Origin: a virus
Lineage: Duplodnaviria > Heunggongvirae > Uroviricota > Caudoviricetes
IMG/VR virus record: IMGVR_UViG_3300017989_000089
Span: 1-64,000 of that record
Length of the DNA stretch: 64,000 nucleotides
Direction: 5' to 3' (one strand)
The notes beneath the pieces were generated by a model. The model was not told where the DNA came from, searched no databases, and worked only from the letters and a program-made list of their open reading frames with translations. Every line of letters starts with the position of its first letter. Positions within the stretch are counted from its first letter, which is position 1. A program made the translations under genes and the position numbers. This document shows, piece by piece, positions 37,578 to 63,456 of the stretch.

Positions 37578-38444
37578 ATGGATAAGAAAATTCCTGACAA
37601 TCCTGGCATCACCCACGTTCTCTACCACGGAAATTGCTACGATGGGTTTACTGCGGCATGGATCGCACGTAACGCTGGTGTGCCAGAAGAAAACATCCGC
37701 CCTGTGAACTATGGAGGGGAGTGTCCACCATTACCGGATCCACCAGGGTCCAAAGTTTTGATGACTGACTTCTCCCTGCCCAGAGAGGGTCTCCAGATGA
37801 TGGAGAAGGCGGTGGAAACTCTGATCGTTCTCGATCATCACAAGACTGCTGAAGCTCAGCTGCATGGACTGCCTTGGGCATACTTCGACATGAACGAATC
37901 GGGTGCGAGCTTGACATGGGACTTCTTCCATCCAGGCGAGCCACGACCGAAATTTGTCAAGTACATCCGTGAACACGATCTATGGAGGTTTGAACTGGCA
38001 CAGTCTGCACAGGTGAGAGCGTTCATTCGATCCTACCCTATGTCCTATGAAAACTGGGATTACCTCAATACGACGATTGAAATGGATTTTGAGATCGTGG
38101 AGCGTGAAGGTGCAGCAATCCAGCGTGGACATGAGGCGTTGATCAGCGAGATGTGCAAACAGGCTGTTATCATGAAAATCGGTGGGCATGAAGTACCGGT
38201 TGTCAATGCGACAATCCTGTTTTCCGAAGTAGCAACACGCCTTCTGAAGCTGTATCCAAATGCTTCATTCGCCGCATACTACATGGATCGCGCTGACGGC
38301 GTTCGTCAATGGGGAATGAGATCACGGAGTGATTTCGACTGCTCAAAGGTCGCGAAACGTTACGGTGGTGGGGGCCACCCTGGAGCATCCGGCTTCGTCA
38401 CAGAAGTCCCAACAATAATCGAAGAAGAGAAAGAAAAGGCTTGA
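37578..38444 (+). CDS. DHH/DHHA1-family phosphoesterase (NrnA-like)
   Basis: 288 aa. Motifs are HGNCYDGFTAAW (DxD), VLDHHKT (DHH) and a C-terminal GGGHPGASGF (DHHA1 GGGH). Confidence 0.65.
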   Translation: MDKKIPDNPGITHVLYHGNCYDGFTAAWIARNAGVPEENIRPVNYGGECPPLPDPPGSKVLMTDFSLPREGLQMMEKAVETLIVLDHHKTAEAQLHGLPWAYFDMNESGASLTWDFFHPGEPRPKFVKYIREHDLWRFELAQSAQVRAFIRSYPMSYENWDYLNTTIEMDFEIVEREGAAIQRGHEALISEMCKQAVIMKIGGHEVPVVNATILFSEVATRLLKLYPNASFAAYYMDRADGVRQWGMRSRSDFDCSKVAKRYGGGGHPGASGFVTEVPTIIEEEKEKA

Positions 38445-38478
38445 CAGCTTAGCTACTGGATCCTACAATTATTCACGT

Positions 38479-38555
38479 AGCGGAGTGGGGGAGAGGCCGT
38501 CCCCGCTGGGCTCATATCCCGGAGATCGCTGGTTCGAATCCAGTCTCCGCCACCA
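38479..38555 (+). tRNA. tRNA-Met (CAT), initiator-like
   Basis: Hand-folded. D-stem gggg/cccc. Anticodon stem ctggg/cccgg has three G-C pairs next to loop ctCATat. T-loop ttcgaat. Position 1:72 is an A-C mismatch. Encoded CCA. Confidence 0.7.
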
Positions 38556-38666
38556 TATTCGAGGTTTGATCCCAGCCTTACCCAAATGGGAGCCGGGCAC
38601 GGTCGGAACCGGGGTACAAACGGGGCCGAGGAATTATCATGAGAGTCAGCGAAAGCATAATACGAC

Positions 38667-38742
38667 TGGGCACGGAGGTCTGGTCGATCCACTGACTCTT
38701 ATAAGGCCGGTGCGCTGGGTTCGATTCCCAGGTGCCCAACCA
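38667..38742 (+). tRNA. tRNA-like / possible pseudo-tRNA (canonical 3' half, aberrant D/anticodon region)
   Basis: Acceptor tgggcac/gtgccca, T-arm ctggg-ttcgatt-cccag and CCA are clean. The intervening 41 nt do not fold into D and anticodon arms. An 8-bp stem agagtcag/ctgactct overlaps the region. Confidence 0.35.
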
Positions 38743-38862
38743 AAAAGAAAGTTGGAAATTATGAGACCTAAAGGCATTGTAAGGACGACTCAGGTGGTCA
38801 TTAATGCCTCCGCGAAGGGGGATACCTCTACGTAGGGCTCGGTCCATACTTCCACAATTCAT

Positions 38863-38892
38863 AGGCCGGGTCCTACGGGGTCCGGCCTTTTT
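38863..38892 (+). terminator. rho-independent terminator
   Basis: GC stem aGGCCGG...CCGGCCt followed by TTTTT. Confidence 0.5.
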
Positions 38893-38968
38893 ACTTTAGG
38901 GGTAAATAAGGTTTGTCCATTAAATTAGTCTGTTCACGTTTCGTGGACACGCAGAAATAATGAACGTT

Positions 38969-39046
38969 CCGGCCCGAGGAAGCTGGTCGTAACCGCTACA
39001 CTGATAATGTAGGTCGAGCGTGGTTCGATTCCACGGGGCCGGACCA
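38969..39046 (+). tRNA. tRNA-Ile (GAT)
   Basis: Acceptor ccggccc/gggccgg. Anticodon stem ctaca/tgtag, loop ctGATaa. T-arm cgtgg-ttcgatt-ccacg. CCA. Confidence 0.7.
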
Positions 39047-39119
39047 ACTAAGAAGGAATAGGAGGTGTGTCAAGTCACTTTCAGCAGGACGTTAACCAAT
39101 TTCCTGCTGGAGGTGTATC

Positions 39120-39449
39120 ATGGCACAGAAAGTTTACTGTGGTGTGCCAGAGAAGGAATGCTTCGGTACTCACCACATTTCAAATGCGATGCTGAATCAC
39201 GCAGCGAGTGTCAAGCTTCACGCGACACACGAAGAAGCCTTCAAGTGTTATAAGCGGTGGTTGATGACGCAAGGGTACGAGCAAATCGGCCCACGTGAGT
39301 TCAGGAAAGAGGGCGAACCGATTCGTGTTCTAACGCGGAAGAGTAAGTTCGGGACAACGATGCGATCAGGAAAGGGAAAAGATGGCTCAAGTCCAGGAAG
39401 TACAAGATACGTTCCGCAAACGACGCGGGGGTTCATCCACAGGAGCTAA
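39120..39449 (+). CDS. hypothetical protein
   Basis: 109-aa ORF between tRNAs. Basic. Confidence 0.3.
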   Translation: MAQKVYCGVPEKECFGTHHISNAMLNHAASVKLHATHEEAFKCYKRWLMTQGYEQIGPREFRKEGEPIRVLTRKSKFGTTMRSGKGKDGSSPGSTRYVPQTTRGFIHRS

Positions 39450-39571
39450 GTTCGGTGCTTGGAGTTTCCGGGTAGTCCGCAGTGTAGGAAGCGGAGGATT
39501 TTGCTTGAGGGTATATGAGACTGCGGAGAGCACCGTCGATGAACAATTGGTTGATTTAATGTTGGAGGAGA

Positions 39572-39647
39572 TCAGGGGTAGCTTAGCGGCTAAAGCGTCC
39601 GGCTGTTAACCGGGTCATCGTGGGTTCGAGTCCCACCCTCTGAGCCA
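39572..39647 (+). tRNA. tRNA-Asn (GTT)
   Basis: D-stem gctt/aagc. Anticodon stem tccgg/ccggg, loop ctGTTaa. T-arm gtggg-ttcgagt-cccac. CCA. Confidence 0.75.
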
Positions 39648-39900
39648 GCTATCATGAACAGAGCGACGAAGAGAATGTACTGCAAGAGTTGCCGTAAGGA
39701 CACTATGTGGTCCCGCGGGATTGCTCTGATCAATAGGTGGCTCGTGAGCGCCGATTTCCTGGGCGACTTCATGGGGACTCTCGAGGAAGCAAAAGCAAAA
39801 GGGATCGACGTGACCGGGCAAACAATGAGCGCAAGCGGACCTCCGTACATAACGAACGCGATGAAGTGCAGCGAGTGTGGGAGGTCGATTACGGATTAGT

Positions 39901-39975
39901 GGGCTGGTAGCTTAATGGGAGAGCGGGTGCTTTGCAAGCATTCAGATGTCGGTTCGACCCCGACCTGGTCCACCA
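39901..39975 (+). tRNA. tRNA-Ala (TGC)
   Basis: G3:U70 pair in the acceptor stem. Anticodon loop ttTGCaa. T-arm gtcgg-ttcgacc-ccgac. CCA. Confidence 0.65.
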
Positions 39976-40342: not shown

Positions 40343-40418
40343 GCCCCTGTAGCTTAATTGGAAGAGCGGACGCCTTGTAAGCGACCAGATGCGGGTTCGA
40401 GTCCTGCCGGGGGCTCCA
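40343..40418 (+). tRNA. tRNA-Thr (TGT)
   Basis: Acceptor gcccctg/cgggggc. D-stem gctt/gagc. Anticodon loop ctTGTaa. T-arm gcggg-ttcgagt-cctgc. CCA. Confidence 0.7.
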
Positions 40419-40765
40419 ATGATACGGCATATTAATCGTAGTCATTTGAAACGGAGATGGGGGCGCAAATGGACTAAAAGAGCATGTCCTTGTTGTGGTG
40501 CTGGAGATGATTACAACAGGGAGCGCCAACGAAGGAATCTCAAGGAACGTCTGATCAAGGCAGAGATCAAAGATGGATTGGCCAAAGTGTCCTAAGTGTG
40601 GCACGCCTGGATCTTCAAAAGGATTCCAGGGAGAACTAATTTGGATTCCTACTTGCCAATGTGGCAAAGGACTGTTTCCTGAGAAGCCGATGGTTCGCAT
40701 TTGGGAAACACCTGAGGAGGAAGAAGTGAAGAAGCTCAAACGTAGGAGACGGGAAGAGTAACACC

Positions 40766-40842
40766 GCCTCCATAGTTCAACTGCGCAGAACAACGGGCTT
40801 TTAACCCGTGAGATGTAGGTTCGAATCCTGCTGGGGGCACCA
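40766..40842 (+). tRNA. tRNA-Lys (TTT)
   Basis: Acceptor gcctcca/tgggggc. D-stem gttc/gaac. Anticodon stem acggg/cccgt, loop ctTTTaa. T-arm gtagg-ttcgaat-cctgc. CCA. Confidence 0.8.
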
Positions 40843-40844
40843 GA

Positions 40845-40919
40845 GCCCCCGTAGTCTAATAGGAAAGGCACTGGACTTCTAATCCAGGAGATGTAGGTTC
40901 GAGCCCTACCGGGGGTTCC
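40845..40919 (+). tRNA. tRNA-Arg (TCT)
   Basis: Lies 2 nt after tRNA-Lys. Anticodon stem ctgga/tccag, loop ctTCTaa. T-arm gtagg-ttcgagc-cctac. CCA. Confidence 0.8.
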
Positions 40920-41071
40920 AAGATGGTGGACATAACACCAAATGATCCAGGTTGGATCACACTGATCGAGGACGACGAGCCGATTACCGGCGAATCGCTA
41001 TGCAAGGAATGTGGGAGGCCTATTAAGGATCACTACAACGAACGATCCTGCCCTGAACTGAAAGGGGGAAT

Positions 41072-41566
41072 ATGATCTATCTAGTTTCCTACATAGAGGA
41101 AGTGAAGATCGGTTGGCGTGCGTACGATCGCTGGATGTTCGATATATTGGATACAGGATTCGGCATCGACATTCACTATTACATCCCAATCGATCTACAA
41201 AAAGACGGAGACTGGTTCTGGAGCAAAGGAAGAGGAGGGGAGGACAAAAGGTTCGTTGCAGATCTCCCAATGCTGAAGAGAGTGCTCGGTGATATCAACT
41301 ATGTAAATGTCCAACCTGCAAAAGTGCTGAGGTCACTTGGTAAGGTGGGACAGAACCTAACGAACTTCATCCATCCCGATGAAGACGTTTGTTACATCTT
41401 CGGACCAAATAAAGGGAAGATAGAACTACTGCCGGGTTATAATGTCTACATCACGCTCGAGAAGAGTGCGCTGCATGCTTCATCCGCTGCAGCAATCGTG
41501 CTTTATGACCGAAGAGCAAAGATCGAAACTGGTACTCGTGGTTGGCCCACCGAGAAGCGGGACTAG
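41072..41566 (+). CDS. SPOUT-class RNA 2'-O-methyltransferase (TrmL/TrmH-like)
   Basis: 164 aa. The C-terminal half (YIFGPNKGKIELLPGYNVYITLEKSALHASSAAAIVLYD) matches TrmL motifs (FGPE..G; IPM..SLN.S.A.A..LYE). Confidence 0.45.
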   Translation: MIYLVSYIEEVKIGWRAYDRWMFDILDTGFGIDIHYYIPIDLQKDGDWFWSKGRGGEDKRFVADLPMLKRVLGDINYVNVQPAKVLRSLGKVGQNLTNFIHPDEDVCYIFGPNKGKIELLPGYNVYITLEKSALHASSAAAIVLYDRRAKIETGTRGWPTEKRD

Positions 41567-42107
41567 CGTCACTGCTAGGATCCTTCATGAGAAGATCGGC
41601 ATTTGTTTTGGACATAATCTAGTACCAGGCAATGCTGGCAACCCGAAAGGGTTCTACGAAGATTCACAGATGGTGGCAGCGACCTTGACCAAGAACACGG
41701 CGATCTGGAGAACGATGCTCGAGTATGTTCACAGCAAATGTAACAAACCGAGAGGAGTGAAAACACCTGAGCTAGCTTTCATGGAGATCAGAGAACTACA
41801 ACCGGATCTCATTTTTAGAACATGTAGGTCTCCTATAGCGATCGCAGACAGCTTGGAGCGTTGGTATCAACCGAAACCATCGTGTGCAGATGCACTGTCG
41901 ATGGCAGTAAAATACGAAAAGGCTATCGAGGAAAAACTAACCGGAATCAGTTGTCATGTCCATCGTGTTGACTTCTACCGACAGCGCGACGAGGGAGAGT
42001 TGGAGGAAGAGTTGAGAAAGGCATGTACCTCCGTAATTCAGCGGATAGAAGGCCGGACTCTTAATCCGGAGGTCGTAGGTTCGAATCCTACCGGGGGTAC
42101 CAAATGA
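41505..42107 (+). CDS. PAPS-dependent sulfotransferase-family protein
   Basis: LVLVVGPPRSGTS matches the 5'-PSB P-loop (PKSGTT) and RSPIAIADSLERWY matches the 3'-PB motif (R.P.D...S.Y..W). The ORF begins at 41442; internal ATG 41505 was chosen. It overlaps the SPOUT gene, and its 3' end runs into tRNA-Lys(CTT). Confidence 0.5.
   Translation: MTEEQRSKLVLVVGPPRSGTSVTARILHEKIGICFGHNLVPGNAGNPKGFYEDSQMVAATLTKNTAIWRTMLEYVHSKCNKPRGVKTPELAFMEIRELQPDLIFRTCRSPIAIADSLERWYQPKPSCADALSMAVKYEKAIEEKLTGISCHVHRVDFYRQRDEGELEEELRKACTSVIQRIEGRTLNPEVVGSNPTGGTK
42027..42101 (+). tRNA. tRNA-Lys (CTT)
   Basis: Anticodon stem ccgga/tccgg, loop ctCTTaa. T-arm gtagg-ttcgaat-cctac. Acceptor 3' cgggggt, then A and CCA. 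Confidence 0.7.
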
Positions 42108-42173
42108 TCTACTGCCACATTTGCAAGAAGAACTACAAGGAATGCACGTGTGGTCTCTCAGAAAGGATGAAGG

Positions 42174-42419
42174 ATGCCCGAGAAAGGCAACGTAGAGAAA
42201 AAGAGGACACCAAAGGGGGATATGATAGACGGTCCGGCCCACTACAAGGGGTACGACGTTCTGGAGTTCATAAATCGACATGACCTCGGTTTCGAGCTTG
42301 GTAACGCAGTCAAGTACATTGCTCGAGCACAAGCCAAGGGTAAAGAGATCGAGGACTTGAAAAAAGCGGTATTCTATTTGAATTGGTACATCGAAAGAAA
42401 GGAGAGTGGAGCGGAGTAG
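42174..42419 (+). CDS. hypothetical protein
   Basis: 81-aa ORF between two tRNAs. Confidence 0.35.
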   Translation: MPEKGNVEKKRTPKGDMIDGPAHYKGYDVLEFINRHDLGFELGNAVKYIARAQAKGKEIEDLKKAVFYLNWYIERKESGAE

Positions 42420-42486
42420 TTCAGTTGGCTAGAACGTCCGGCTCTGAACCGGAAGGTCGCTGGTTCGAGCCCAGCCTCCGCTTCCA
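42410..42486 (+). tRNA. tRNA-Gln (CTG)
   Basis: D-stem gttc/gaac with D-loop agttggcta. Anticodon stem tccgg/ccgga, loop ctCTGaa. T-arm gctgg-ttcgagc-ccagc. CCA. Confidence 0.8.
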
Positions 42487-42495: not shown

Positions 42496-43482
42496 ATGAG
42501 CGACGAGAGAGTACACAGCTACAGCAGCCCGTACGCAGTTGGGCACAAGATGCTCGCCCGTTACGAAGATCGCCCAGGCATCTTCGAGGTGGAGGTCTTT
42601 GTCGAAGAGAAGATCGATGGAAGCCAGTTCTCCTTTCGTAAAGAAGGAGACGAGGTGAAGTTCCGCTCTCGCAAGACAGATCTCTACCCCGGCAATGCGG
42701 GGATGTTCGAGAAGGGAGTACAATCTGTACTCGAGGTTGCCGATCGCCTCTCCGAAGGTTGGACGTATCGTGGTGAGTATCTCATGAAGCCAAAACACAA
42801 TACACTATGCTACGAGCGTGTACCGAATAGAAACGTCGTGATCTTCGATATCGAGAAGGCACCGAATGACTTCCTGACTCCAGACCAGCGAATGGAGGAA
42901 GCAACACGGCTCGGGTTCGATGTCGTTCCTGTGTACTTCACCGGAATGATCGACGACATGAACCAGCTGAAGCAGTTCCTGACCAAGGTTTCCATACTTG
43001 GTGGACCGATCGAGGGGATCGTAATCAAGCCAAAGAGTCAGATGCTATTCGGTATCGACAAGAAGCTTCTCATGGCTAAGTTCGTTGCCGAAGACTTCAA
43101 GGAGAAGCATGAAGGTGAGTGGAAGAAGTCCAATCCAGGACGGAAGGACATCGTTCAGGAGATCATCGAGACTTACAAAACGCCTCAGAGATGGAACAAA
43201 GCCGTACAGCACCTTCGTGAGGCTGGTAAGCTCGAGGGATCTCCACGGGACATTGGACTTCTCATGAAGGAAGTCCCAAGCGACGTCTACAAGGAATGCG
43301 CCGAAGAGATCAAGGAACAGATCTTCAAGTACTTTTGGAGACAGATCTCTAGAGCATTGACGAGTGGACTACCCGAGTGGTACAAGGAAAAACTTGCGAA
43401 GGACGCGTTCGAGAATCCGGAAGGTTGTCAGCCTCATGAGAGTGTCCAAGCCGAGAACGGGGAAGGAGCAAAGCCAGAATGA
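42496..43482 (+). CDS. ATP-dependent nucleic-acid ligase (Rnl2-like RNA ligase / small DNA ligase)
   Basis: 328 aa. Nucleotidyltransferase motif I is EEKIDGSQ (KxDG), motif IV is EGIVIKP, motif V is LLMAKFVAEDFKEK. Size and context suggest RNA ligase. Confidence 0.65.
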   Translation: MSDERVHSYSSPYAVGHKMLARYEDRPGIFEVEVFVEEKIDGSQFSFRKEGDEVKFRSRKTDLYPGNAGMFEKGVQSVLEVADRLSEGWTYRGEYLMKPKHNTLCYERVPNRNVVIFDIEKAPNDFLTPDQRMEEATRLGFDVVPVYFTGMIDDMNQLKQFLTKVSILGGPIEGIVIKPKSQMLFGIDKKLLMAKFVAEDFKEKHEGEWKKSNPGRKDIVQEIIETYKTPQRWNKAVQHLREAGKLEGSPRDIGLLMKEVPSDVYKECAEEIKEQIFKYFWRQISRALTSGLPEWYKEKLAKDAFENPEGCQPHESVQAENGEGAKPE

Positions 43483-43676
43483 GAGAGCGTTGTCCACGGT
43501 GTGGTATCCCATTTCTGAAGCACGAAGTAATAGTTGGTGAGGAGATGCCTCTTGGAGACGGTACGAAGTGCTATGGGCGTAAAGGGGTAATCTACTACCA
43601 CAAAACAGGCATCCACTGTGGGATCAAAGATGATGGGACAATGTACGAGATAGACTGCAGAGCAAAGCCCGATTAG
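43479..43676 (+). CDS. zinc-ribbon mini-protein
   Basis: 65 aa with CPRCG...C..C-like cysteine pairs. Overlaps the ligase stop. Confidence 0.3.
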   Translation: MRERCPRCGIPFLKHEVIVGEEMPLGDGTKCYGRKGVIYYHKTGIHCGIKDDGTMYEIDCRAKPD

Positions 43677-43740
43677 CTCAATAGGAGAGCCACCGGCCTA
43701 CACCCGGAAGACGGGGGAGCGTTACCTCCATCGGGCACCA
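43667..43740 (+). tRNA. atypical tRNA-like (anticodon TAC?, non-canonical T-loop agcgtta)
   Basis: Perfect acceptor gcccgat/atcgggc and CCA. D-stem gctc/gagc. T-stem ggggg/cctcc, but the loop is agcgtta (not TTC). Anticodon loop cctacac carries C33. Confidence 0.35.
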
Positions 43741-43913: not shown

Positions 43914-44012
43914 GGAGGTGTGAGCGGAAATAGGCTATCGCCCCTCGTTGGAAGCGAGGCTCGCCTCGGTCAGCGCCGGGGCGTGTAGGTTCGAGTCCTA
44001 CCACCTCCGCCA
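43914..44012 (+). tRNA. tRNA-Ser (GGA), class II
   Basis: Acceptor ggaggtg/cacctcc. Anticodon stem cctcg/cgagg, loop ttGGAag. Long variable arm with 6-bp stem cctcgg/ccgggg. T-arm gtagg-ttcgagt-cctac. CCA. Confidence 0.55.
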
Positions 44013-44050: not shown

Positions 44051-44377
44051 TTGAGGGTACAAAAGAGGGTAACACAGAAAGTAGGTAATATGACCTGGAA
44101 TTTAGGTGTTGCTAAATGGATCGCCTTATTGACTGTGGTCACCTGCATAAGATGGGTAGATATCACAGGTGATTCTGGTTGGGTATCCAAAGAGGAGATT
44201 ACCGAGGCAGCAGAGATTACCAGCTGTGGGATCCTTGTGAAAGAGGATGACGAATTTCTCTGGCTCGCTATGGACGCATCTGAGGACGAGGAGTTCAATT
44301 CAACCGGTGTCTTCCCAAAGGGGGTCATCCTGAAGAGGATAGATACCGAAGTTGACATGGATCTCGAAAAGGACTAG
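44051..44377 (+). CDS. hypothetical protein
   Basis: 108-aa ORF with a hydrophobic N-region and acidic C-terminus. Confidence 0.3.
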   Translation: MRVQKRVTQKVGNMTWNLGVAKWIALLTVVTCIRWVDITGDSGWVSKEEITEAAEITSCGILVKEDDEFLWLAMDASEDEEFNSTGVFPKGVILKRIDTEVDMDLEKD

Positions 44378-44409
44378 ACGCAGAGAGCCCAACCACGTAT
44401 AATTCGGAC

Positions 44410-44488
44410 GGAACCTTGGTCTAGATAGGACTAGGATGCCCGGCTGTCTACCGGGAGGTCACGGGTTCGAATCCCGTAGGTTCCGCCA
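44410..44488 (+). tRNA. tRNA-Asp (GTC)
   Basis: Acceptor ggaacct/aggttcc. Anticodon stem cccgg/ccggg, loop ctGTCta. T-arm acggg-ttcgaat-cccgt. CCA. Confidence 0.7.
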
Positions 44489-44578: not shown

Positions 44579-44654
44579 GCGTGTGTGGTGCTAATGGTAA
44601 GTCGCAGGCCTTCCAAGCCTTGAGATGCGGGTTCGAATCCTGTCACACGCTCCA
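44579..44654 (+). tRNA. tRNA-Gly (TCC)
   Basis: Acceptor gcgtgtg/cacacgc. Anticodon stem aggc/gcct, loop ctTCCaa. T-arm gcggg-ttcgaat-cctgt. CCA. Confidence 0.65.
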
Positions 44655-44668: not shown

Positions 44669-45244
44669 ATGCCACAGTATGCCCGACCTATTGAAGACGC
44701 TTTTCTGTATATCCCTCCACCTGAGTATGATGGTGGGCCATTCGGGGACAGCTGGCGCGATAACATCGGAGGCACGTCTGACTTGTTCCAGCGAATTGGG
44801 ACGAACATTCCGAACGACACCGACTACGCTGAATCAGATCTAATACTAGGTCCCCTCTTTCCAGATGCTGACGAAGATGGCGATCCTGGAGAAGCAGCTT
44901 TTACGGAATCCACTGCCTATGTTTGCAAACTGTCCGAAGTGGTTGATCCTGTGATAGACGAAGGCTTCACCATACGTGCAAGGTTGGCGAAGAACGAACC
45001 TGATGGTGTGAATGTCGACTGCCTCATAGAACTGCGGAAGGACTACAATGTAGAGGGTGATGCGCTCGAGAGCGATGGTGACCTTGGTCAGCTTATCGCT
45101 TCCCACATCTTTGAAGGCATCACTTCCGAGTTCATCGAGTACAGCTTTGTCGTTACACCGGAGGAAGCAGCCAGTATAGATAACTACGACGATCTCTATC
45201 TGCGTTTTGTTTTCTCTGCATCCCTCAAGGGAGTGTACGCATGA
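44669..45244 (+). CDS. paralog family member A (unknown function)
   Basis: 191 aa. Shares N-terminal G.TS.L...I, central Y.CKLS.V.DP, DLTVEL-like and C-terminal DLYLRFV motifs with the next two ORFs. Confidence 0.5.
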   Translation: MPQYARPIEDAFLYIPPPEYDGGPFGDSWRDNIGGTSDLFQRIGTNIPNDTDYAESDLILGPLFPDADEDGDPGEAAFTESTAYVCKLSEVVDPVIDEGFTIRARLAKNEPDGVNVDCLIELRKDYNVEGDALESDGDLGQLIASHIFEGITSEFIEYSFVVTPEEAASIDNYDDLYLRFVFSASLKGVYA

Positions 45245-53291: not shown

Positions 53292-53300
53292 AAAGAAAGT

Positions 53301-54586: not shown

Positions 54587-54681
54587 GGAGGGTGCCGGGC
54601 CAATGGGTGCCCAACCGGTCTCGAAAACCGGGGGACCTCCCGAGAAGGGGGGTCGGGGTTCGAATCCTCCACCCTCCGCCA
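54587..54681 (+). tRNA. tRNA-Ser (CGA), class II
   Basis: Acceptor ggagggt/accctcc. Anticodon stem ccggt/accgg, loop ctCGAaa. Long G-rich variable arm. T-loop ttcgaat. CCA. Confidence 0.55.
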
Positions 54682-55204: not shown

Positions 55205-56430
55205 ACGATCACCACTATGATGTCTACGTGGCTGATGGTAAACCGGTGTATGCCTGGGTGAAGGGTGTACCGATCGAGGACGAAGCACTGACACAAGTGC
55301 TCAACGTCTCGAGAATGCCTTTCATCCACCATCACGTTGCGGTTATGCCCGACGTCCATGCGGGGATGGGTGCTACTATCGGATCAGTGATCCCAACAAA
55401 GGGTGCCATCATCCCTGCGGCGGTAGGCGTGGACATTGGTTGTGGTATGCAGGCTTGCCACACCAACTGGGGTATCCACGATCTTCCGAAGGACCTTAGC
55501 AAGCTGCGTGAAGCCATTGAGAAGCTCGTACCCCACGGAAGGACGGATAATGGTGGGCCGATGGACCGCGGTGCGTGGGGAACACCTCCACCGGGCGTGA
55601 ACACCGCGTGGCAGAACGAGTGTGACCCCGATAAGTTGGCTACACTCGTAGCGAAGTATCCTGAGTTGGGAAAGGCGAACTCGACCAGACATCTCGGGAC
55701 TCTAGGTACGGGTAATCACTTTATTGAGATCTGCCTGGACGAAAACGACAGCGTGTGGGTAATGCTCCACTCAGGCTCGAGAGGGATCGGTAACAAGATT
55801 GGTAGCTTCTTTATAAGACTAGCGAAGGAAGACATGAAGAAGTACTATATCACTCTACCGGATCCAAATCTGGCTTACTTTGTCGAGGGTACCACGAACT
55901 TTACCGACTACATACTTGCGGTAAAGTGGGCTCAGAGGTTCGCGCAGGTGAACAGATGGTTCATGATGAACCAGACACTGGCGGCTATGGAGCATGCAAC
56001 CAAGATCCACTGCTATGGAAAGGAGCCGATCATTGACTGTCACCACAACTACGTCGAACTCGAGCATCACTACAACGAGAACATTTGGGTCACTCGTAAG
56101 GGAGCTACAAGAGCTAGAGAAGGCGATTTTGGAATTATTCCAGGATCCATGGGTGCTCGAAGCTATATCGTCCGTGGAAGAGGCGTTCAGGAATCTTTCC
56201 ACAGCTGCTCGCACGGCGCTGGAAGGGCTATGTCTCGTACCGCAGCTAAGAAGCGATTCTCTATCGAGGATCACAAGAAGGCCACCGAGGGGATCGAGTG
56301 CAAGAAAGATGACTCTGTCCTCGATGAAACCCCAGGTGCATACAAGGATATTGACGCGGTCATGGAAGCGCAGAAGGACCTAGTGGAGGTTGTTCATGAA
56401 CTCAAGCAGGTGGTTTGTATCAAAGGCTAG
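55201..56430 (+). CDS. rtcB: RtcB-family RNA ligase (3'-phosphate/5'-hydroxyl)
   Basis: 409 aa. Motifs are MPDVHAGMGATIGSV, GTGNHFIEI, HSGSRGIGNK and CSHGAGR. Size equals E. coli RtcB. Confidence 0.8.
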   Translation: MNDHHYDVYVADGKPVYAWVKGVPIEDEALTQVLNVSRMPFIHHHVAVMPDVHAGMGATIGSVIPTKGAIIPAAVGVDIGCGMQACHTNWGIHDLPKDLSKLREAIEKLVPHGRTDNGGPMDRGAWGTPPPGVNTAWQNECDPDKLATLVAKYPELGKANSTRHLGTLGTGNHFIEICLDENDSVWVMLHSGSRGIGNKIGSFFIRLAKEDMKKYYITLPDPNLAYFVEGTTNFTDYILAVKWAQRFAQVNRWFMMNQTLAAMEHATKIHCYGKEPIIDCHHNYVELEHHYNENIWVTRKGATRAREGDFGIIPGSMGARSYIVRGRGVQESFHSCSHGAGRAMSRTAAKKRFSIEDHKKATEGIECKKDDSVLDETPGAYKDIDAVMEAQKDLVEVVHELKQVVCIKG

Positions 56431-57061
56431 TCTATTACTGGTCTGGTTGACACTTAGTTGCGGGAATTGGCCTATCGAGCCGCCTCCACCTCCACCGCCG
56501 CCTCCTACAACGACGTCTACAACCAGCACTACCACTACGACAACACCAGTAACGACGACCACGACCAGCACTACGACGACGATCGATGATATACAGGCGA
56601 AGGATTACTACACGCTCGATCTTGCGGGAACTTTGCCTGCAGATTACACGCAGGACTGTAGAGACGCCACTGGGATGGTACTGAAGCTCTGTGTGCAGCG
56701 ACAGGAGTTGATATGGCAGGGATACAGAGGTCCGAATAAGGCACGCTATGATTGCAGAGACGAGCTACACGTGATTGGAGTCGACCCTGAAGACCTCGAT
56801 GCTCTTGTTGAGAGAGTGGAGGGTCCTGAAGGACTGTTGGCGCGCCTTGATCGTTTCATCGTGCGGCTACCGATGGAGAACTCTGATTTCCCTGGGCGAT
56901 CGGTCGTGAGGAAGGAATACTACAGAGCGTTCCAGAACGATCTCGTCGCCCACCTGGAAGAAGCAGGGATCTACAATGACGCGACACAAACCGATCCGTG
57001 TCGCCAAACGGAGGCTTACGACAACCTCCAAGGATGGTGCGAAAAATGTTACGCAAACTGA
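56396..57061 (+). CDS. putative lipoprotein with poly-Pro/poly-Thr linker
   Basis: Start ATG 56396 sits behind TGGAGGT. Signal peptide with Cys (LLLVWLTLSC-G), then PPPPPPPPPTTTSTTSTTTTTTPVTTTTTSTTTT, then a Cys-containing globular domain. Confidence 0.45.
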   Translation: MNSSRWFVSKASLLLVWLTLSCGNWPIEPPPPPPPPPTTTSTTSTTTTTTPVTTTTTSTTTTIDDIQAKDYYTLDLAGTLPADYTQDCRDATGMVLKLCVQRQELIWQGYRGPNKARYDCRDELHVIGVDPEDLDALVERVEGPEGLLARLDRFIVRLPMENSDFPGRSVVRKEYYRAFQNDLVAHLEEAGIYNDATQTDPCRQTEAYDNLQGWCEKCYAN

Positions 57062-58605: not shown

Positions 58606-58977
58606 ATGAATCAGACTCAGAGGAAATATGCGTTGGAACGCATACAAGGGATCTACAAAGAGAAGGCTGCAGATTTGAAGAAACACTGTGACATCTCACC
58701 GGCTCCCATAACGCATGGAGAGCTACAGAAGCAGATCAAGTCTGGGGCAGTCAAGGTTATTCGTCCGAAGTCGGAGCTATACAAATATGCCGACGTCAAG
58801 GACGTGTTCGATCTGCCCGATGGACTCTTCGAACAAGACGAGATGTTCGACGGGACATACGAAGGGCGCAAGAAGAAACTCGATGCGTACTTCATGAAGA
58901 TCAAAGACGAACTCATGCTTGGAGATGCCGAAGAAGCAGTGAAGCTGATCAAGGCATTCGACAGCGAGAAGTTTTAG
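58606..58977 (+). CDS. hypothetical protein
   Basis: Start is the internal ATG 58606, behind AAAGGAAG. Stop abuts tRNA-Tyr. Confidence 0.4.
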   Translation: MNQTQRKYALERIQGIYKEKAADLKKHCDISPAPITHGELQKQIKSGAVKVIRPKSELYKYADVKDVFDLPDGLFEQDEMFDGTYEGRKKKLDAYFMKIKDELMLGDAEEAVKLIKAFDSEKF

Positions 58978-59069
58978 GGGTAGCTGGGGAGATTGGTGGG
59001 CCCCGCCGGACTGTAACTCCGGACTCGGGAAACCGGGCGTTGTAGGTTCGAATCCTACCTGCCCCACCA
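58977..59069 (+). tRNA. tRNA-Tyr (GTA), class II
   Basis: Acceptor ggggtag/ctgcccc. Anticodon stem ccgga/tccgg, loop ctGTAac. Long variable arm (tcggg-aaa-ccggg). T-arm gtagg-ttcgaat-cctac. CCA. Confidence 0.7.
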
Positions 59070-59322: not shown

Positions 59323-59546
59323 GGGAGATCAGCTTCAACAATGTCGCCTACTGGATGCGCAATTCAGAAGTTGGTGACTGCGTTCCGACACTGAGCAGAG
59401 TGAAGAGTGGACTACCACCGAGATCTCACTTCGAGGCTGCTTACTTGATTGCGATGAAGTGCCTGAGTTGGGATGGCGAGAAGCTGTCTATCACGGAGAA
59501 AGGTGAAGAGGCATTGGCTTTCTTCACTCATACTAAGCCCGCGTAG
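59307..59546 (+). CDS. hypothetical protein
   Basis: 79-aa ORF ending at the start of tRNA-Arg. Confidence 0.3.
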   Translation: MVDKVREISFNNVAYWMRNSEVGDCVPTLSRVKSGLPPRSHFEAAYLIAMKCLSWDGEKLSITEKGEEALAFFTHTKPA

Positions 59547-59612
59547 CGTAGTGGACGACGCGCCCGGCTACGAACCGGGTATACGGAGGTTCGATTCCTC
59601 CCGCGGGCTCCA
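59537..59612 (+). tRNA. tRNA-Arg (ACG)
   Basis: Acceptor gcccgcg/cgcgggc. Anticodon stem cccgg/ccggg, loop ctACGaa. T-arm ggagg-ttcgatt-cctcc. CCA. Confidence 0.75.
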
Positions 59613-59874: not shown

Positions 59875-59949
59875 AGCCTCGTAGCTCACCGGCTAGAGCG
59901 CCGGGCTTTGAACCCGGAGAACCAGGTTCGACCCCTGGCGGGGCTTCCA
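59875..59949 (+). tRNA. tRNA-Gln (TTG)
   Basis: D-stem gctc/gagc. Anticodon stem ccggg/cccgg, loop ctTTGaa. T-arm ccagg-ttcgacc-cctgg. CCA. Confidence 0.75.
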
Positions 59950-60053: not shown

Positions 60054-60129
60054 GGCCCCGTAGCTCAGCAGGATAGAGCACTGCCCTCCGAAGGCAAAGA
60101 TCCTGGTTCGAGTCCAGGCGGGGCTTCCA
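60054..60129 (+). tRNA. tRNA-Arg (CCG)
   Basis: Acceptor ggccccg/cggggct. D-stem gctc/gagc. Anticodon loop ctCCGaa. T-arm cctgg-ttcgagt-ccagg. CCA. Confidence 0.65.
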
Positions 60130-60683: not shown

Positions 60684-60684
60684 A

Positions 60685-61029
60685 ATGGCAAGCATAGGTG
60701 GATTTTTCAAAGCGATCGGCGGATTCTTCATTGGCCTGTTTCCTCTGATCAAAAAGCTACTCAGCAACCCGGTGATCAAAGCGATCGTCGTTTCCAAGAT
60801 TGGACAAAAGTGGTATGAGGTCATCAAGGCTCTCATCGAGGCCGCGGATGAAATGGATGATCTTACGAGTGAAGCGAAACATGCGTACGTCGTCAATGAG
60901 GCTCGCATGCGGGGACTCGACACATACACTGCCCCTGATGCCGAACTCGACATGATGATCTCCGGTATCGTTGCAGAGAAGCGCAGACCTGATCGTGTTC
61001 GTGTGTTGACGGAAGAGAGCAGAGCGTGA
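60685..61029 (+). CDS. hypothetical protein (N-terminal hydrophobic segment)
   Basis: 114 aa. N-terminus MASIGGFFKAIGGFFIGLFPLI. Confidence 0.4.
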   Translation: MASIGGFFKAIGGFFIGLFPLIKKLLSNPVIKAIVVSKIGQKWYEVIKALIEAADEMDDLTSEAKHAYVVNEARMRGLDTYTAPDAELDMMISGIVAEKRRPDRVRVLTEESRA

Positions 61030-61391
61030 GCACAATAGAGTTGCCTAAGCTGCGTATCGAGGTAGAAGTCAAAGATACGACACCGTTATCTATCCCGGAT
61101 ACGGAATGGTTCTGCTATGACAGCAAAGGACACTTACATAAATGGCAACTCATTGGTGGGGAGCGCAGACTACCAACTCTGAAACTCGTTGGTGGCTCCG
61201 GCAGATTTTACTATATCTGTAAGAAGTGTGGAGAGCAGGTGAATCCAGTATGGAACTCTTCGCCATCGCAAGCAATGTACGGACCTCGCCACTACTTCGT
61301 AAATGATGTAGAGGTCGACAAGAAGGAATTCGACATGTGGGTGGAGGCATTCCAACGCTTCTGTGAGAAGTACAAGGAGAATCTGCTATGA
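61026..61391 (+). CDS. zinc-ribbon protein
   Basis: 121 aa with CYDSKGHLH...CKKCGEQ. Start overlaps the previous stop. Confidence 0.4.
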   Translation: MSTIELPKLRIEVEVKDTTPLSIPDTEWFCYDSKGHLHKWQLIGGERRLPTLKLVGGSGRFYYICKKCGEQVNPVWNSSPSQAMYGPRHYFVNDVEVDKKEFDMWVEAFQRFCEKYKENLL

Positions 61392-61780: not shown

Positions 61781-61860
61781 CGAGATCGGGATCGATGCGA
61801 TCAAGACCGAACTCGAGAAGCTGTCAAATGGACTCACCAAGAGTTGGAACATGGTGCTAA

Positions 61861-62043
61861 ATGCGGAGAGTAAATGTTGAGTGCCCTTATGGACATAAGC
61901 AAACGATCTGGCTCGAGGACGGGAAACCGATACCAAGGTGCCCTGTCATGAAGAATGTAGAGCGTTGTGAGGGACGAAGGCGTCAGCCTTGCGGAAGGAA
62001 GCGAAAGGAAGTCAATGCCGAGAAGAATAACGGTCGAGTGTGA
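61861..62043 (+). CDS. zinc-ribbon mini-protein (paralog 1)
   Basis: 60 aa: VECPYGHKQTIWLEDGKPIPRCPVM. Confidence 0.3.
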   Translation: MRRVNVECPYGHKQTIWLEDGKPIPRCPVMKNVERCEGRRRQPCGRKRKEVNAEKNNGRV

Positions 62044-62197
62044 AGCAGGACATCGAGAGGAGATCATCATCGGAGCAAACGACAAGATCCCGCGGTGCCC
62101 TACCTGCAGAAAAAAGAGGGAGATTGTATGGGACGAGAAAGGAACACAGGGAGCACCGGGGTTCAGGGTGAAGGGACTGACCAAGAACTTCCGGTGA
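62015..62197 (+). CDS. zinc-ribbon mini-protein (paralog 2)
   Basis: Start is the internal ATG 62015 (MPRRITVECEAGHREEIIIGANDKIPRCPTCRKK). Similar to the preceding mini-protein. Confidence 0.3.
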   Translation: MPRRITVECEAGHREEIIIGANDKIPRCPTCRKKREIVWDEKGTQGAPGFRVKGLTKNFR

Positions 62198-62389
62198 AAC
62201 CGAAGGCGCTGAGGAAAGAGCACCTACAATTCCTGGATAACCTTCGTGAGTCCGGCGAGACCAACATGTATGGATCCCCTCGGTACCTGCGTGAAGGTTT
62301 TTCAGAGTTGACCAAGAACGATGCATCCGAGATCGTCTCATACTGGATGAAGACGTTCTCGCTACGTCACGGGTGAAGGGAGGAAGCCT

Positions 62390-62617
62390 ATGGACACGAA
62401 ATGCATTTGCGGTAAGGAAATGAGAGTGGAACAAGGCAGCGATGCCGTGCAACTCATTTGCGGCTGTGGTCACCATCGAACGGTGAGTCTGCAGATACTC
62501 AAAGGTAGGGGTCCATCCGATACGCAACCGATCAATCCTGTGCCGAAGCCAAAAGGAATGAGTGAAGTGGAACTCAGGAAGGCTCGAGCAAGAATGATGG
62601 AGAAGGTCTATGAATGA
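62390..62617 (+). CDS. zinc-ribbon mini-protein
   Basis: 75 aa with CICGKE...CGCGHH. RBS GGGAGGAAG. Confidence 0.35.
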   Translation: MDTKCICGKEMRVEQGSDAVQLICGCGHHRTVSLQILKGRGPSDTQPINPVPKPKGMSEVELRKARARMMEKVYE

Positions 62618-62749
62618 CGGAAGTTTCGAGAGGAGATTCAGCCTGATCTTCTGGATCAGTTGGATCTTTGGTGTGATGGGAGGGATACTCGGACTTGCCG
62701 CAATGGCGCTCGTCGTGTATGCTCTCTACCTGCTGGTCACCGGGCAAGT

Positions 62750-62824
62750 GCCCCTGTAGGCCATTGGTAAAGCCACAGGACTTTCAATCCTGGGATCGGG
62801 GTTCGATTCCCCGCAGGGGTACCA
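62750..62824 (+). tRNA. tRNA-Glu (TTC)
   Basis: Acceptor gcccctg/caggggt. Anticodon stem cagga/tcctg, loop ctTTCaa. T-arm cgggg-ttcgatt-ccccg. CCA. Confidence 0.75.
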
Positions 62825-62826
62825 AA

Positions 62827-63108
62827 ATGTTTACTGAAACGCTGTCATCCAATCTGTTATTCAAAGTCTGCGAGAGATGTGGAGGGGACCTATTCAGGAT
62901 TTTCTTTGCACGCAACGGCAATCTCATGTGGTGCTGCGCGAACAAAGACTGCGGGTTCAGGGGGAGGGTGATTGAACTCGTAGGAACAAGAGAAAGGAGA
63001 GAGCATGGCAAGCATGCCGATCGAGCTAGCAGAGCACATCGTCGACAAGATCATCGCGGATCTAAGAAATCGAAAGGGTCTAAGGCAAGAGTGGGATCTG
63101 ATCGATAA
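62827..63108 (+). CDS. zinc-ribbon basic protein
   Basis: Starts 3 nt after tRNA-Glu. Contains CERCGG...CCANKDCG. Basic C-terminus. Confidence 0.3.
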   Translation: MFTETLSSNLLFKVCERCGGDLFRIFFARNGNLMWCCANKDCGFRGRVIELVGTRERREHGKHADRASRAHRRQDHRGSKKSKGSKARVGSDR

Positions 63109-63158
63109 GGAGATCCAGGAAGACATCAAACATACCTGGAGATCAATTATCGAGTACT

Positions 63159-63374
63159 ATGGAGACTGACATGGCTGAGCCTACAAAGAAAGCGCCCGAG
63201 ATCAATCAGTTCATCTCTAACATGATGGGGAGAGAGCGTGAAGCTACCATCCGCGAAGATCGCTGTATGGTTTGCGGAGGTCCTGCGGCGAATTTCCGTG
63301 ACGCCCTTTCCGAGAAGGAGTATACTATTTCCGGCATGTGCCAGAACTGCCAGGATGAAATGTTTGGAGTTTGA
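63159..63374 (+). CDS. zinc-ribbon mini-protein
   Basis: 71 aa with CMVCGG...CQNCQ. Confidence 0.35.
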   Translation: METDMAEPTKKAPEINQFISNMMGREREATIREDRCMVCGGPAANFRDALSEKEYTISGMCQNCQDEMFGV

Positions 63375-63380
63375 TCTAAA

Positions 63381-63456
63381 GGCCCCGTCGTCTAGTGGTC
63401 TAGGATTCCGCCCTCTCACGGCGGCGACATGGGTTCAAATCCCGTCGGGGCTACCA
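63381..63456 (+). tRNA. tRNA-Glu (CTC)
   Basis: D-arm tcgtctagtggtctagga closely resembles bacterial tRNA-Glu. Anticodon stem ccgcc/ggcgg, loop ctCTCac. T-loop ttcaaat. CCA. Confidence 0.7.

Follow-up and report, generated by a model that had tools for sequence, protein, structure and literature searches.

A conserved array of 28 tRNA genes, interleaved with small open reading frames and RNA ligase genes, in an uncultivated tailed phage

Here we describe an array of 28 transfer RNA (tRNA) genes in the rightward, non-structural plus-strand arm of a tailed phage genome (Duplodnaviria; Heunggongvirae; Uroviricota; Caudoviricetes), where they lie among small open reading frames (ORFs) and genes for RNA ligases. 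The stretch analysed, hereafter the window, comprises the 64,000 nt at positions 1 to 64,000 of IMG/VR record IMGVR_UViG_3300017989_000089, and the array occupies positions 37578-63456. An earlier note, made from the letters of the sequence and by folding candidate genes by hand, had placed such an array on a phage genome, and the minus-strand arm (1-37.5 kb) bears this out with genes for a large terminase, a portal, a head protease, a major head protein and a 1683-aa tape measure. The sign of the GC skew switches at about 38 kb, at the same place as the coding strand. The window belongs to a siphovirus-like tailed phage, uncultivated and without a close cultured relative. Megablast of a 20-kb part of the array returned zero matches among 50,697 phage records (INPHARED), and the nearest large terminase (TerL), from the Roseobacter phages CRP-901/902, is 36% identical. 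Several public metagenome assemblies contain near-identical sequence, in contigs of up to 83,289 bp; the public contigs that contain the window (L001-L003 and L009-L012) are 99.99-100% identical to it and hence uninformative for covariation.

Across the whole window ARAGORN called 27 tRNA genes, all on the plus strand between positions 38479 and 63456, and none at 1-38478. The Rfam tRNA model (RF00005, curated gathering score 29 bits) found 23 loci above that score in default mode and one more (43914-44009, 39 bits) under laxer filters; rather than failing on most loci, this covariance model thus passed 24 of 28, at 33.6-68.4 bits. The Rfam match at 43667-43737 (44.9 bits, Val UAC-like) has no ARAGORN call and brings the total to 28, which is what the earlier note had estimated for tRNA or tRNA-like genes. 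All 22 anticodons listed there were recovered, and ARAGORN adds Ile(TAT), Leu(CAA), Leu(TAG), Leu(GAG) and Trp(CCA). With individual E-values between 1e-13 and 1e-3, a chance origin of the calls is excluded. The Rfam search gave zero matches at E<=1 for tRNA-Ile(TAT) (38667) and tRNA-Ile(GAT) (38969), while for tRNA-Trp (53223) and tRNA-Ser(CGA) (54587) the best match within the clan was tRNA-Sec, under its threshold. The note had credited almost all of the genes with an encoded CCA; in fact it stands directly 3' of every one (28/28), and all 28 retain a perfect or near-perfect acceptor.

The array serves 18 amino acids and includes an initiator-like tRNA-Met. Its 28 genes are spread over 24,978 bp (1.1 tRNA per kb, largest gap 4,421 bp), singly or in small groups among about 50 small, mostly orphan ORFs. 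A strict scan for a T arm, a 7-bp acceptor and CCA yielded no locus beyond those already known, and hence no hidden tRNA for Pro or Cys, and the 10 kb downstream of the window hold zero tRNAs; at least 74 kb of the 83-kb contig thereby contain no tRNA for Pro, Cys or elongator Met.

In the following account of the array, genes were called by ARAGORN unless otherwise stated and bit scores are those of Rfam. The tRNA series opens with the initiator-like tRNA-Met(CAT) at 38479-38555 (49.4 bits), marked by an A1xC72 mismatch and three G:C pairs closing the anticodon stem. It is followed by tRNA-Ile(TAT) (38667-38742) and its paralog tRNA-Ile(GAT) (38969-39046), both called by ARAGORN only and sharing a non-canonical D arm (2-bp stem, purine at position 8). 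There follow tRNA-Asn(GTT) at 39572-39647 (63.2 bits), tRNA-Ala(TGC), with G3:U70, at 39901-39975 (56.8 bits), tRNA-Thr(TGT) at 40343-40418 (55.6 bits), tRNA-Lys(TTT) at 40766-40842 (65.4 bits) and, 2 nt further 3', tRNA-Arg(TCT) at 40845-40920 (63.4 bits). The first half continues with tRNA-Lys(CTT) at 42027-42102 (67.1 bits), tRNA-Gln(CTG) at 42410-42486 (68.4 bits), the Rfam-only tRNA-Val(TAC)-like gene at 43667-43740, with C33 and a degenerate T loop (AGCGTTA), the 99-nt tRNA-Ser(GGA) with a long variable arm at 43914-44012, tRNA-Asp(GTC) at 44410-44488 (55.4 bits) and tRNA-Gly(TCC) at 44579-44654 (47.1 bits).

The second half begins with tRNA-His(GTG) at 49076-49151 (53.5 bits), which has a G at -1 (49075) opposite C73. 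Downstream lie tRNA-Leu(CAA) at 51240-51316 (60.3 bits; class I, 77 nt, with a 4-5 nt variable loop and A73), tRNA-Phe(GAA) at 52624-52699 (63.4 bits), a miniature tRNA-Trp(CCA) of 70 nt with G73 at 53223-53292, tRNA-Leu(TAG) at 53301-53378 (59 bits; class I, 78 nt, A73) and tRNA-Leu(GAG) at 53558-53634 (56 bits; class I, 77 nt); Leu(CAA), Leu(TAG) and the miniature Trp are also supported by covariation. These are succeeded by tRNA-Ser(GCT) at 54115-54202 (50.8 bits), the 95-nt tRNA-Ser(CGA) at 54587-54681 (tRNA-Sec match of 39.4 bits, below threshold), the 93-nt tRNA-Tyr(GTA) with a long variable arm at 58977-59069 (33.6 bits), tRNA-Arg(ACG) at 59537-59612 (62.8 bits), tRNA-Gln(TTG) at 59875-59949 (61.6 bits), tRNA-Arg(CCG) at 60054-60129 (62.5 bits), tRNA-Glu(TTC) at 62750-62824 (65 bits) and, as the final tRNA of the array, tRNA-Glu(CTC) at 63381-63456 (57.1 bits).

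At least eight further metagenomic loci are syntenic with the array at protein identities of only 64-77%. They were reached through homologs of two proteins encoded in the array, a DHH phosphoesterase (64-81% identity) and the RNA ligase RtcB (66-71%); L016-L019 cover the first half of the array and L020-L023 the second. The tRNA order is identical across all eight: Met, Ile(TAT), Ile(GAT), Asn, (Gly GCC), Ala, Thr, Lys, Arg, Lys, Gln, Val, Ser, Asp, Gly in the first half, and His, Leu(CAA), Phe, Trp, (Leu TAA), Leu(TAG), Leu(GAG), Ser, Ser, Tyr, Arg, Arg/Gln, Glu, Glu in the second. Some relatives possess tRNA-Leu(TAA), and none of the eight loci has a Pro or Cys tRNA. Scans of IMG/VR with RtcB and the DHH protein gave zero confirmed relatives, and the IMG/VR relatives of a second RNA ligase of the array (L004-L008) do not carry the array.

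Alignment of these loci revealed extensive compensatory change. In 13 Leu genes, 96.9% of cells are paired and both sides change in 16 of 19 pairs, a result reached by 0 of 500 shuffles, and slid controls likewise fell far below the real pairing. All acceptor and T stems of ten Ile genes are paired despite divergent sequences, as are their anticodon stems except for one A:C mismatch in the TAT copies of the window and L019, and Ile(TAT) is conserved in L016-L019 with compensatory changes in all stems. For Trp, 100% of cells are paired, with seven compensatory pairs in our own structure count and 11 of 23 according to RNAalifold. Because the array genes are syntenic in divergent relatives and carry compensatory substitutions, they are, as judged from these alignments, under selection as structured RNAs, and the array is by the same comparison genuine and evolutionarily maintained.

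The canonical cloverleaves described in the earlier note hold for most of the array; for Ile(GAT), with its odd D arm and lack of any Rfam match, the description fails, and at least six of the 28 tRNAs are non-canonical. A canonical core (U8, a D stem of 3-4 bp, a D loop of 7-11 nt and T54-U55-C56) could not be found in six genes, among them Ile(TAT), Ile(GAT), Trp, Val and His, and is present in the others. The three genes with Leu anticodons are atypical in another respect, being 77-78 nt long with a variable loop of 4-5 nt, so that the long arm of class II tRNAs (a stem-loop of >10 nt) is absent. They keep the D arm of bacterial tRNA-Leu (3-bp stem, A14 A15, G18 G19, A20a) together with U48 and A73, and the set recognised by LeuRS (A73, A14, A15-U48, G18G19, A20a and the D arm with a 3-bp stem) is complete and invariant in the alignments. 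Escherichia coli LeuRS requires these elements and not the long arm (PMC9976931). According to the same review, tRNA-Leu retains the long arm everywhere but in animal mitochondria (PMC9976931), a universality with which the short-arm tRNA-Leu predicted in this phage is at odds; our literature search found no paper discussing short-arm tRNA-Leu of phages.

The positional counterparts of Leu(GAG) in the related loci L021 and L022 belong to class II (84-86 nt). The window copy has the anticodon arm in common with them but a short-form body, and thus a short scaffold appears to have replaced the long one in the window lineage. Three to four Leu isoacceptors use the short form in this phage family, whereas tRNA-Ser and tRNA-Tyr retain long arms. 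The long variable arm is an identity element for SerRS, with which its retention in tRNA-Ser is consistent. BLAST identified full-length, ungapped relatives of the short Leu genes, annotated as tRNA-Leu, in phages KVP40, Mx1, Comrade and others: tRNA-Leu-3 of the Vibrio phage KVP40 (78 nt, L014:1495-1572), two 74-nt tRNA-Leu genes of the Myxococcus phage Mx1 (L013:3001-3074 and 3902-3975) and the 75-nt tRNA-Leu(caa) of the Streptomyces phage Comrade (L015:1499-1573), which lies beside one of 84 nt. The body plan common to these and the window genes consists of G1, a D arm of the form GTAGCCCAA-YTGG-CAGAGGC, a variable loop of 4-5 nt and A73. KVP40, Mx1 and Comrade are unrelated to the window phage, whose family differs in using the short form for several isoacceptors, with GAG remaining long in relatives.

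The tRNA-Trp is reduced further. As modelled by RNAalifold from five homologs, a 7-bp acceptor runs directly into a D stem of 4 bp that closes a 3-nt YGG loop, followed by one spacer, a 7-bp anticodon stem with a CUCCAAA loop, a variable region of 2-3 nt and a normal 5-bp T arm. The 70 nt of the gene, CCA included, thus dispense with the 8/9 linker in a 7/4/7/5 helix plan, and this modelled fold is novel. Further copies lie at L020:6175-6245, L021:6187-6256, L022:7514-7583 and L028:7223-7293, and a pattern scan located the core in two unrelated IMG/VR phage contigs (L026:~428-505 and L027:~4686-4763), in both cases without an ARAGORN call and without an encoded CCA. In a scan of genome contigs, the same core gave three chance matches inside Acidobacteriota genes and one contig with a tRNA array. 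The latter (L032:~6000-7711, minus strand; WVWW01000280.1), a 42-kb contig binned to an Acidobacteria metagenome-assembled genome (MAG), carries 14 closely packed tRNA genes, Pro(CGG) among them, next to the sequence matching the core; this contig may derive from a phage or prophage and give a weak clue to the host. In tblastx, L026, L027, L028 and L032 had zero similarity to the window, and the scan yields no firm host assignment.

In the Ile pair, the D stem has 2-3 bp that covary (GG:CC, CC:GG, GC:GC), a purine replaces U8 and the D loop CTGGTYG is conserved; five phages retain this odd D arm in all ten homologs. The Ile(GAT) copy of L017 reaches 42.8 bits on the Rfam tRNA model when its region is searched alone at an E-value threshold. 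A 17-nt match to a transfer-messenger RNA (tmRNA) fragment at 38715-38731, together with a tmRNA of L017, prompted the idea that the Ile D loop (CTGGTCG) marks a tmRNA-like domain, which proved unsupported: the genes have full anticodon arms and conserved Ile anticodons. The L017 gene, situated between tRNA-Met and tRNA-Ile(TAT), is a 78-nt tmRNA reduced to its tRNA-like domain (L017:11655-11732; ENA ERZ25072490 ctg194656) and is absent from the window. Against the Rfam tmRNA model it reaches 76.8 bits, 11 nt standing in place of the 308 central positions of the model, and it has G3:U70 and ACCA, while the tag reading frame and the pseudoknots are absent. INPHARED holds no full-length counterpart; the 3' half alone has matches, at ssrA and att sites.

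The remaining departures are smaller. The Val T loop reads AGCGTTA in the window phage only, relatives having TTCGAAT or TTCAAAC, and C33 in place of U33 is common to the window and L019. The T loop of tRNA-His is TGCGAGT, position 55 being G, and a U1xC72 mismatch lies under G-1:C73. In tRNA-Asp, position 37 is U, positions 37-38 varying among relatives. Nuclease-insensitive phage tRNAs (van den Berg et al. 2023) are distinguished from the host isoacceptor by anticodon-loop changes where nucleases recognise it; here, C33 in Val and this U37 are the only oddities noted in anticodon loops.

The identity nucleotides fit bacterial rules (taken from PMC9976931): Ala has G3:U70, His has G-1 with C73, and the discriminator is A73 in Leu, Tyr, Phe, Lys, Val, Ile and Met, G73 in Ser, Trp, Asp and Asn, and U73 in Gly. 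The anticodon set also fits the codons of the phage itself, a comparison that the earlier note had proposed. Over about 12,300 codons from long phage ORFs, a Watson-Crick cognate is present for 54% and standard wobble extends the readable share to 77%, or to 94% on the assumption that in the Ala, Gly, Thr and Val boxes one U34 tRNA decodes all four codons. Both members of the Lys, Glu and Gln boxes are covered, and the preferred codons CTC, ATC, TTC, TCC, CGT and AGA have their cognates. The set cannot read Pro (4.6% of codons), Cys, TTA (relative synonymous codon usage, RSCU, 0.03-0.11) and TCA (RSCU 0.49-0.71, the rarest Ser codon); the Leu and Ser codons without a phage tRNA are thus those that the phage avoids. 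The array is a near-complete pool co-adapted to phage codon usage, not a few supplements for rare codons.

Several enzyme genes, all on the plus strand, accompany the tRNAs. The first gene of the arm (37578-38444) encodes a DHH/DHHA1 phosphoesterase of NrnA/NrnB-like type (phrog_4771, E=6.7e-69); its Pfam DHHA1 score, 24.3 bits, lies slightly below the cut-off, and homologs head the same array in relatives. An ATP-dependent RNA ligase (Rnl2-like nucleotidyltransferase) is encoded at 42496-43482 (PF09414, E=3.8e-15; 56.9 bits against a cut-off of 27), and its translation contains the motif I lysine (KxDG) in EEKIDGS. The other ligase, RtcB, which joins 3'-phosphate and 5'-hydroxyl RNA ends, lies at 55201-56430 and matches PF01139 over the whole profile (1-426 of 426, E=3.3e-127). 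Co-location of the tRNA set with RtcB and the PF09414 ligase is conserved in several relatives. The closest named cellular RtcB sequences, at 61-69% identity, come from Planctomycetota and Hydrogenedentes MAGs, a similarity that may offer a weak host hint at best. No homolog of polynucleotide kinase-phosphatase (Pnkp) was detected in Pfam and PHROGs searches of the array ORFs, and the Rfam family YrlA (Y RNA-like), considered because of RtcB, had zero matches in the window at E<=1. Further assigned genes are those for a DUF3310 protein at 42174-42419 (PF11753 on the public gene call; phrog_236, E=2.7e-23) and a DUF4326 protein at 50470-50733 (Pfam, E=4.7e-24).

That very short ORFs and enzyme genes separate the tRNAs, as the earlier note had described, is confirmed by public gene calls on identical contigs, which place 47 plus-strand genes in the interval (median about 106 aa, 19 of them at <=81 aa). 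We relied on these calls and on conservation, a codon-usage gene finder being too weak for Cys-rich mini-ORFs; further mini-ORFs exist beyond the public calls. PHROGs and Pfam gave almost no matches for the mini-ORFs and most of the larger array ORFs. The characterisation of the mini-ORFs as zinc ribbons, many with CxxC pairs, stands in part. About 15 ORFs have paired Cys/His motifs and seven of these, including a paralog pair, are conserved in relatives with their Cys retained, while a loose count of Cys motifs gives nine ORFs on either strand (2.4 in mononucleotide shuffles) and a strict count of CxxC...CxxC gives three on the plus against two on the minus strand. None passes the Pfam zinc-finger and zinc-ribbon families (best 19.3 bits, cut-off 27), and one belongs to a PHROG family whose function is not known. 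On their conservation, the seven are real genes with plausible metal-binding knuckles; "zinc ribbon" seems a reasonable but unproven label for a subset, not a property of the ORF population.

These conserved ORFs, all on the plus strand, are spread along the array. An 81-aa ORF (39654-39899, CxxC...CxxC), called on L011 and L019, is 88% identical in L019 with both Cys pairs kept and lies 6 nt from tRNA-Asn and 1 nt from tRNA-Ala. Cys residues are likewise kept in L019 by a 62-aa ORF at 40573-40761 (CPKC...CQC, 72% identical) and a 59-aa ORF at 42104-42283 (CHIC...CTC, 50%), the latter overlapping the DUF3310 gene. Towards the end of the array lie a 121-aa ORF (61026-61391, C/H...CxxC) conserved with its motif in L022 and L023, two paralogous mini-ORFs (61861-62043 and 62015-62197, together 61861-62197; VEC..GH...C) matched in L020-L023 with the motif kept, and a 75-aa ORF (62390-62617, CxC...CxC) that is 40% identical in L020-L022 with its Cys kept.

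Other neighbouring genes are less readily placed. Three consecutive ORFs (44669-45244, 45241-45717 and 45732-46172; 191, 158 and 146 aa) without family matches have N-termini that look alike by eye (MPQYARPIEDA, MTQIALPEEDA and MSQFGRPSTDA); they are probably tandem paralogs, and the relatives conserve this block, with genes of 146-192 aa. Directly 3' of RtcB, the ORF at 56390-57061, also without a family match, has a run of nine Pro followed by Thr/Ser-rich low-complexity sequence and overlaps the next gene. About 6 kb past the end of the window, in a leftward gene block 3' of the array, the same phage carries a minus-strand gene (L024:16004-16570) with the Pfam family PF26128 (Gad2, an anti-Gabija family).

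Candidate transcription signals stand close to several tRNAs. A promoter of the form TAGACG-17-TATAAT (44375-44403, plus strand) ends 6-7 nt before the +1 of tRNA-Asp; in four phages both of its hexamers are invariant while spacer and flanks vary, and the window contains a single instance of the pattern, where 0.01 would be expected. By this phylogenetic footprint the element is a sigma-70-like promoter, with a predicted transcription start at or next to the mature 5' end. A promoter-like TTGACA-17-TACAAT (38441-38469, plus strand; 11/12 matches) lies 9 nt upstream of tRNA-Met, its TTGACA box being also found in L019, and similar elements precede Ile(TAT) (38634-38661) and Ile(GAT) (38933-38961). 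The -10-like boxes stand 4-9 nt upstream of Met, Ile(TAT) and Ile(GAT) in the window, with similar ones in L019, and that of Ile(TAT) recurs in L016-L018. Predicted starts thus fall at, or within 0-3 nt of, the mature 5' ends of the Asp, Met, Ile(TAT) and Ile(GAT) tRNAs, and, if so, these four would have no need of RNase P processing. A strong hairpin resembling an intrinsic terminator (11 bp, eight of them G:C, with a T run) lies at 38863-38888 on the plus strand.

Junctions between tRNAs and ORFs are frequently tight on the upstream side, the stop codon of the preceding ORF lying <=12 nt from the tRNA 5' end for 65 of 135 tRNAs in the window and its relatives, against 18.5% in the control. 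Downstream, ATG ORFs of at least 40 codons start at -1 to +2 after CCA for 12 of 134 tRNAs where 3.8 are expected (p=5e-4), the 134 junctions coming from related phages and being non-independent. In the window, ATG follows CCA at 0-2 nt at five junctions (40418/40419, 40920/40923, 42102/42104, 54681/54684 and 62824/62827), and none of these ORFs has a separate Shine-Dalgarno sequence; such tight contacts are a minority of junctions only. The G-rich 3' strand of the acceptor (CGGGGGY) occurs with and without ORFs starting right after CCA, and to regard it as a Shine-Dalgarno sequence is speculation. A conserved 200-aa ORF (41505-42107, plus strand; a gene call on L009) continues without a stop into tRNA-Lys(CTT) and across its full length. 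Its homology to L016-L019 ends at the 5' end of that tRNA, the L019 homolog stopping inside the tRNA and those of L016 and L018 stopping 5-6 nt before it. Excision of the tRNAs, if it occurs, would produce leaderless or non-stop mRNAs at these junctions. In L016-L018 and L020-L022, many tRNAs have ...(A/G)TTTGT on their 5' side and CCA-(A/G)TTTG(A) on their 3' side, flanks not obvious in the window that suggest a shared processing or junction motif.

The reading that we favour, with moderate confidence, is that the array provides a replacement tRNA pool coupled to RNA repair, which would sustain translation upon depletion or cleavage of host tRNAs. What the analysis shows directly is the identity of the genes, their conservation with covariation, the match to codon usage, the enzyme families and the promoter footprint. 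In the mechanism that we infer, from expression and processing through charging and repair to the selective pressure behind them, the plus-strand arm would be transcribed from sigma-70-like promoters, a few of which abut tRNA 5' ends, with the rest read as polycistronic RNA. Host RNase P and 3'-end nucleases would free the tRNAs, and host aminoacyl-tRNA synthetases would charge them, the required identity marks being present (G3:U70 in Ala, G-1/C73 in His, A73 in Leu, G73 in Ser, Trp and Asp). The phage pool, tuned to its own codons, could then maintain translation under host shut-off or anticodon-nuclease defences, with RtcB and the second ligase resealing cut tRNAs.

We prefer this reading to pure codon compensation, an explanation we regard as unlikely though still worth weighing, under which the tRNAs supply codons commoner in the phage than in its host, without any loss of or damage to tRNAs. 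It is the classical explanation of phage tRNAs (PMC10264068), and it accounts for the cognates of the preferred codons and for the avoidance of the unread ones. However, a set that reads about 94% of codons and covers the Lys, Glu and Gln boxes in full is much more than a supplement for a few rare codons, the conserved co-location with two RNA ligases is left unexplained, and the core prediction turns on the codon usage of the host.

A further proposal, to which we give similarly little credence, concerns the remodelled tRNAs (the 70-nt Trp, the Ile pair and the short Leu), which the lineage would maintain by purifying selection: these might escape host enzymes that read a normal tRNA body while remaining chargeable. 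Charging would be left to synthetases reading only the anticodon, the discriminator or the D/T elbow, and the enzymes evaded would be tRNA-targeting nucleases or modification-dependent defences, evasion acting through the whole tRNA architecture beyond the anticodon loop. The same design would encompass the promoter at the +1 of tRNA-Asp and similar boxes, which would bypass RNase P, and an excision of tRNAs that would yield leaderless mRNAs for the mini-ORFs beginning 0-2 nt after CCA.

The close junctions invite another reading, which we judge improbable, namely that the tRNAs serve as punctuation: RNase P and 3' processing would cut the transcript into short, in some cases leaderless, mRNAs, setting the stability and translation of the mini-ORFs, and decoding would be secondary. 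The excess of upstream stops within 12 nt, the excess of ATG ORFs directly after CCA (five of them in the window) and the ORF without a stop before a tRNA all fit this view. Nevertheless, a cleavage signal needs none of the anticodons, identity nucleotides and full cloverleaf that are conserved with covariation, nor would it call for a non-redundant anticodon set matched to codon usage, and tight packing is normal in phage genomes. Finally, that the array is a decaying, horizontally acquired bacterial one with many pseudogenes, as might be suggested by the atypical members that escape the Rfam tRNA model, the Val T loop degenerate in the window phage only and the mobile tRNA arrays known in bacteria and on plasmids (PMC8421152, PMC5966550), is very improbable and largely refuted by covariation, since the atypical members are the very ones with compensatory changes across phages at 64-77% protein identity, order and anticodons are conserved, and acceptor and CCA are kept in 28 of 28 genes.

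Several points weigh against a replacement pool with repair. The set lacks tRNAs for Pro, Cys and elongator Met, so that the phage still depends on host tRNAs and translational autonomy is incomplete; the earlier suggestion of heavy investment in autonomy or in replacement of host tRNAs is in essence correct, being supported by the phage context, the real and conserved tRNAs, the codon match and the two RNA ligases. The window Val gene, without the T54-U55 consensus, may be a weakened, impaired or pseudo copy. From the present comparison, replacement and codon compensation are not separable. RtcB also repairs rRNA and other RNAs, and its link to the tRNAs is for that reason one of co-location only.

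The array bears on the current question of whether large phage tRNA sets with ligases represent codon tuning or a countermeasure to tRNA-cleaving immunity, to which it adds a conserved, deeply divergent example, with eight syntenic genomes for comparison and a set that nearly mirrors phage codon usage. It also offers natural experiments in tRNA architecture, short-arm Leu occurring here and in Vibrio, Myxococcus and Streptomyces phages. The miniature Trp, if charged and used by ribosomes, would define the minimum tRNA body of a bacterial system and be useful for orthogonal tRNA design.

Among known systems, Rhodococcus cluster CB phages carry tRNA clusters by an RtcB-like and a second RNA ligase among small ORFs, an arrangement interpreted as countering host tRNA-turnover defences (PMC13313380). 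Like these and other actinobacteriophages, the window has tRNAs near two RNA ligases, one RtcB-type, in a region rich in small ORFs; the Rhodococcus phages have 11-15 tRNAs in several small clusters, compared with 28 over 25 kb here, and the lineages are unrelated, given the lack of any INPHARED megablast match and a best TerL identity of 36%. The combination of two RNA ligases and a near-complete tRNA set is in line with the hypothesis that phage tRNAs evade anticodon nucleases (PMC10264068). In Anabaena, whose trn operon (an L-array) likewise comprises dozens of tRNA genes, RtcB has been proposed to act with the array tRNAs under translational stress (PMC8421152). Bacterial L-arrays are cellular or plasmid-borne and tightly packed, whereas that of the window is viral and interleaved with ORFs.

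Large tRNA clusters of phages were surveyed by Morgado & Vicente in 2019 (PMC6409571), including those of KVP40, mycobacteriophage cluster C and Streptomyces phages, and the Shigella phage Sf14 has 26 tRNAs for 19 amino acids (PMC12482277). With the surveyed clusters, the window shares a setting in Caudoviricetes (genomes of at least 72 kb, 15-37 tRNAs, about 16 of 20 isotypes), flanks of hypothetical genes and a codon match. Set against the survey's thresholds of at least 15 tRNA genes and at least 2 tRNAs per kb, it has 28 genes but only 1.1 per kb, its gaps of <=4.4 kb holding enzyme genes and ORFs, and it is set apart in that every gene encodes CCA.

Phage T4 has eight tRNAs and repairs PrrC-cleaved tRNA-Lys by means of Pnkp and Rnl1. 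It thus resembles the window in combining tRNAs with enzymes that repair and seal RNA ends, directed in T4 against an anticodon nuclease, and differs in its enzymes, the window having RtcB, which needs no kinase, and the PF09414 ligase. Animal mitochondria possess size-reduced tRNAs with shrunken D arms, and their ORFs abut tRNAs according to the tRNA-punctuation model. The window recalls them in its tRNA-Leu without the long arm, its size-reduced tRNAs with shrunken D arms and its abutting ORFs (with leaderless mRNAs upon excision), but departs from them in its bacterial-virus setting, normal T arms, encoded CCA, long arms of Ser and Tyr and small number of tight junctions, and shared ancestry with mitochondrial tRNAs is unsupported. 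The array itself is thus a known sort of phage tRNA and ligase kit from an uncharacterised lineage, to which the non-canonical tRNAs, the promoter and the junctions add what is new.

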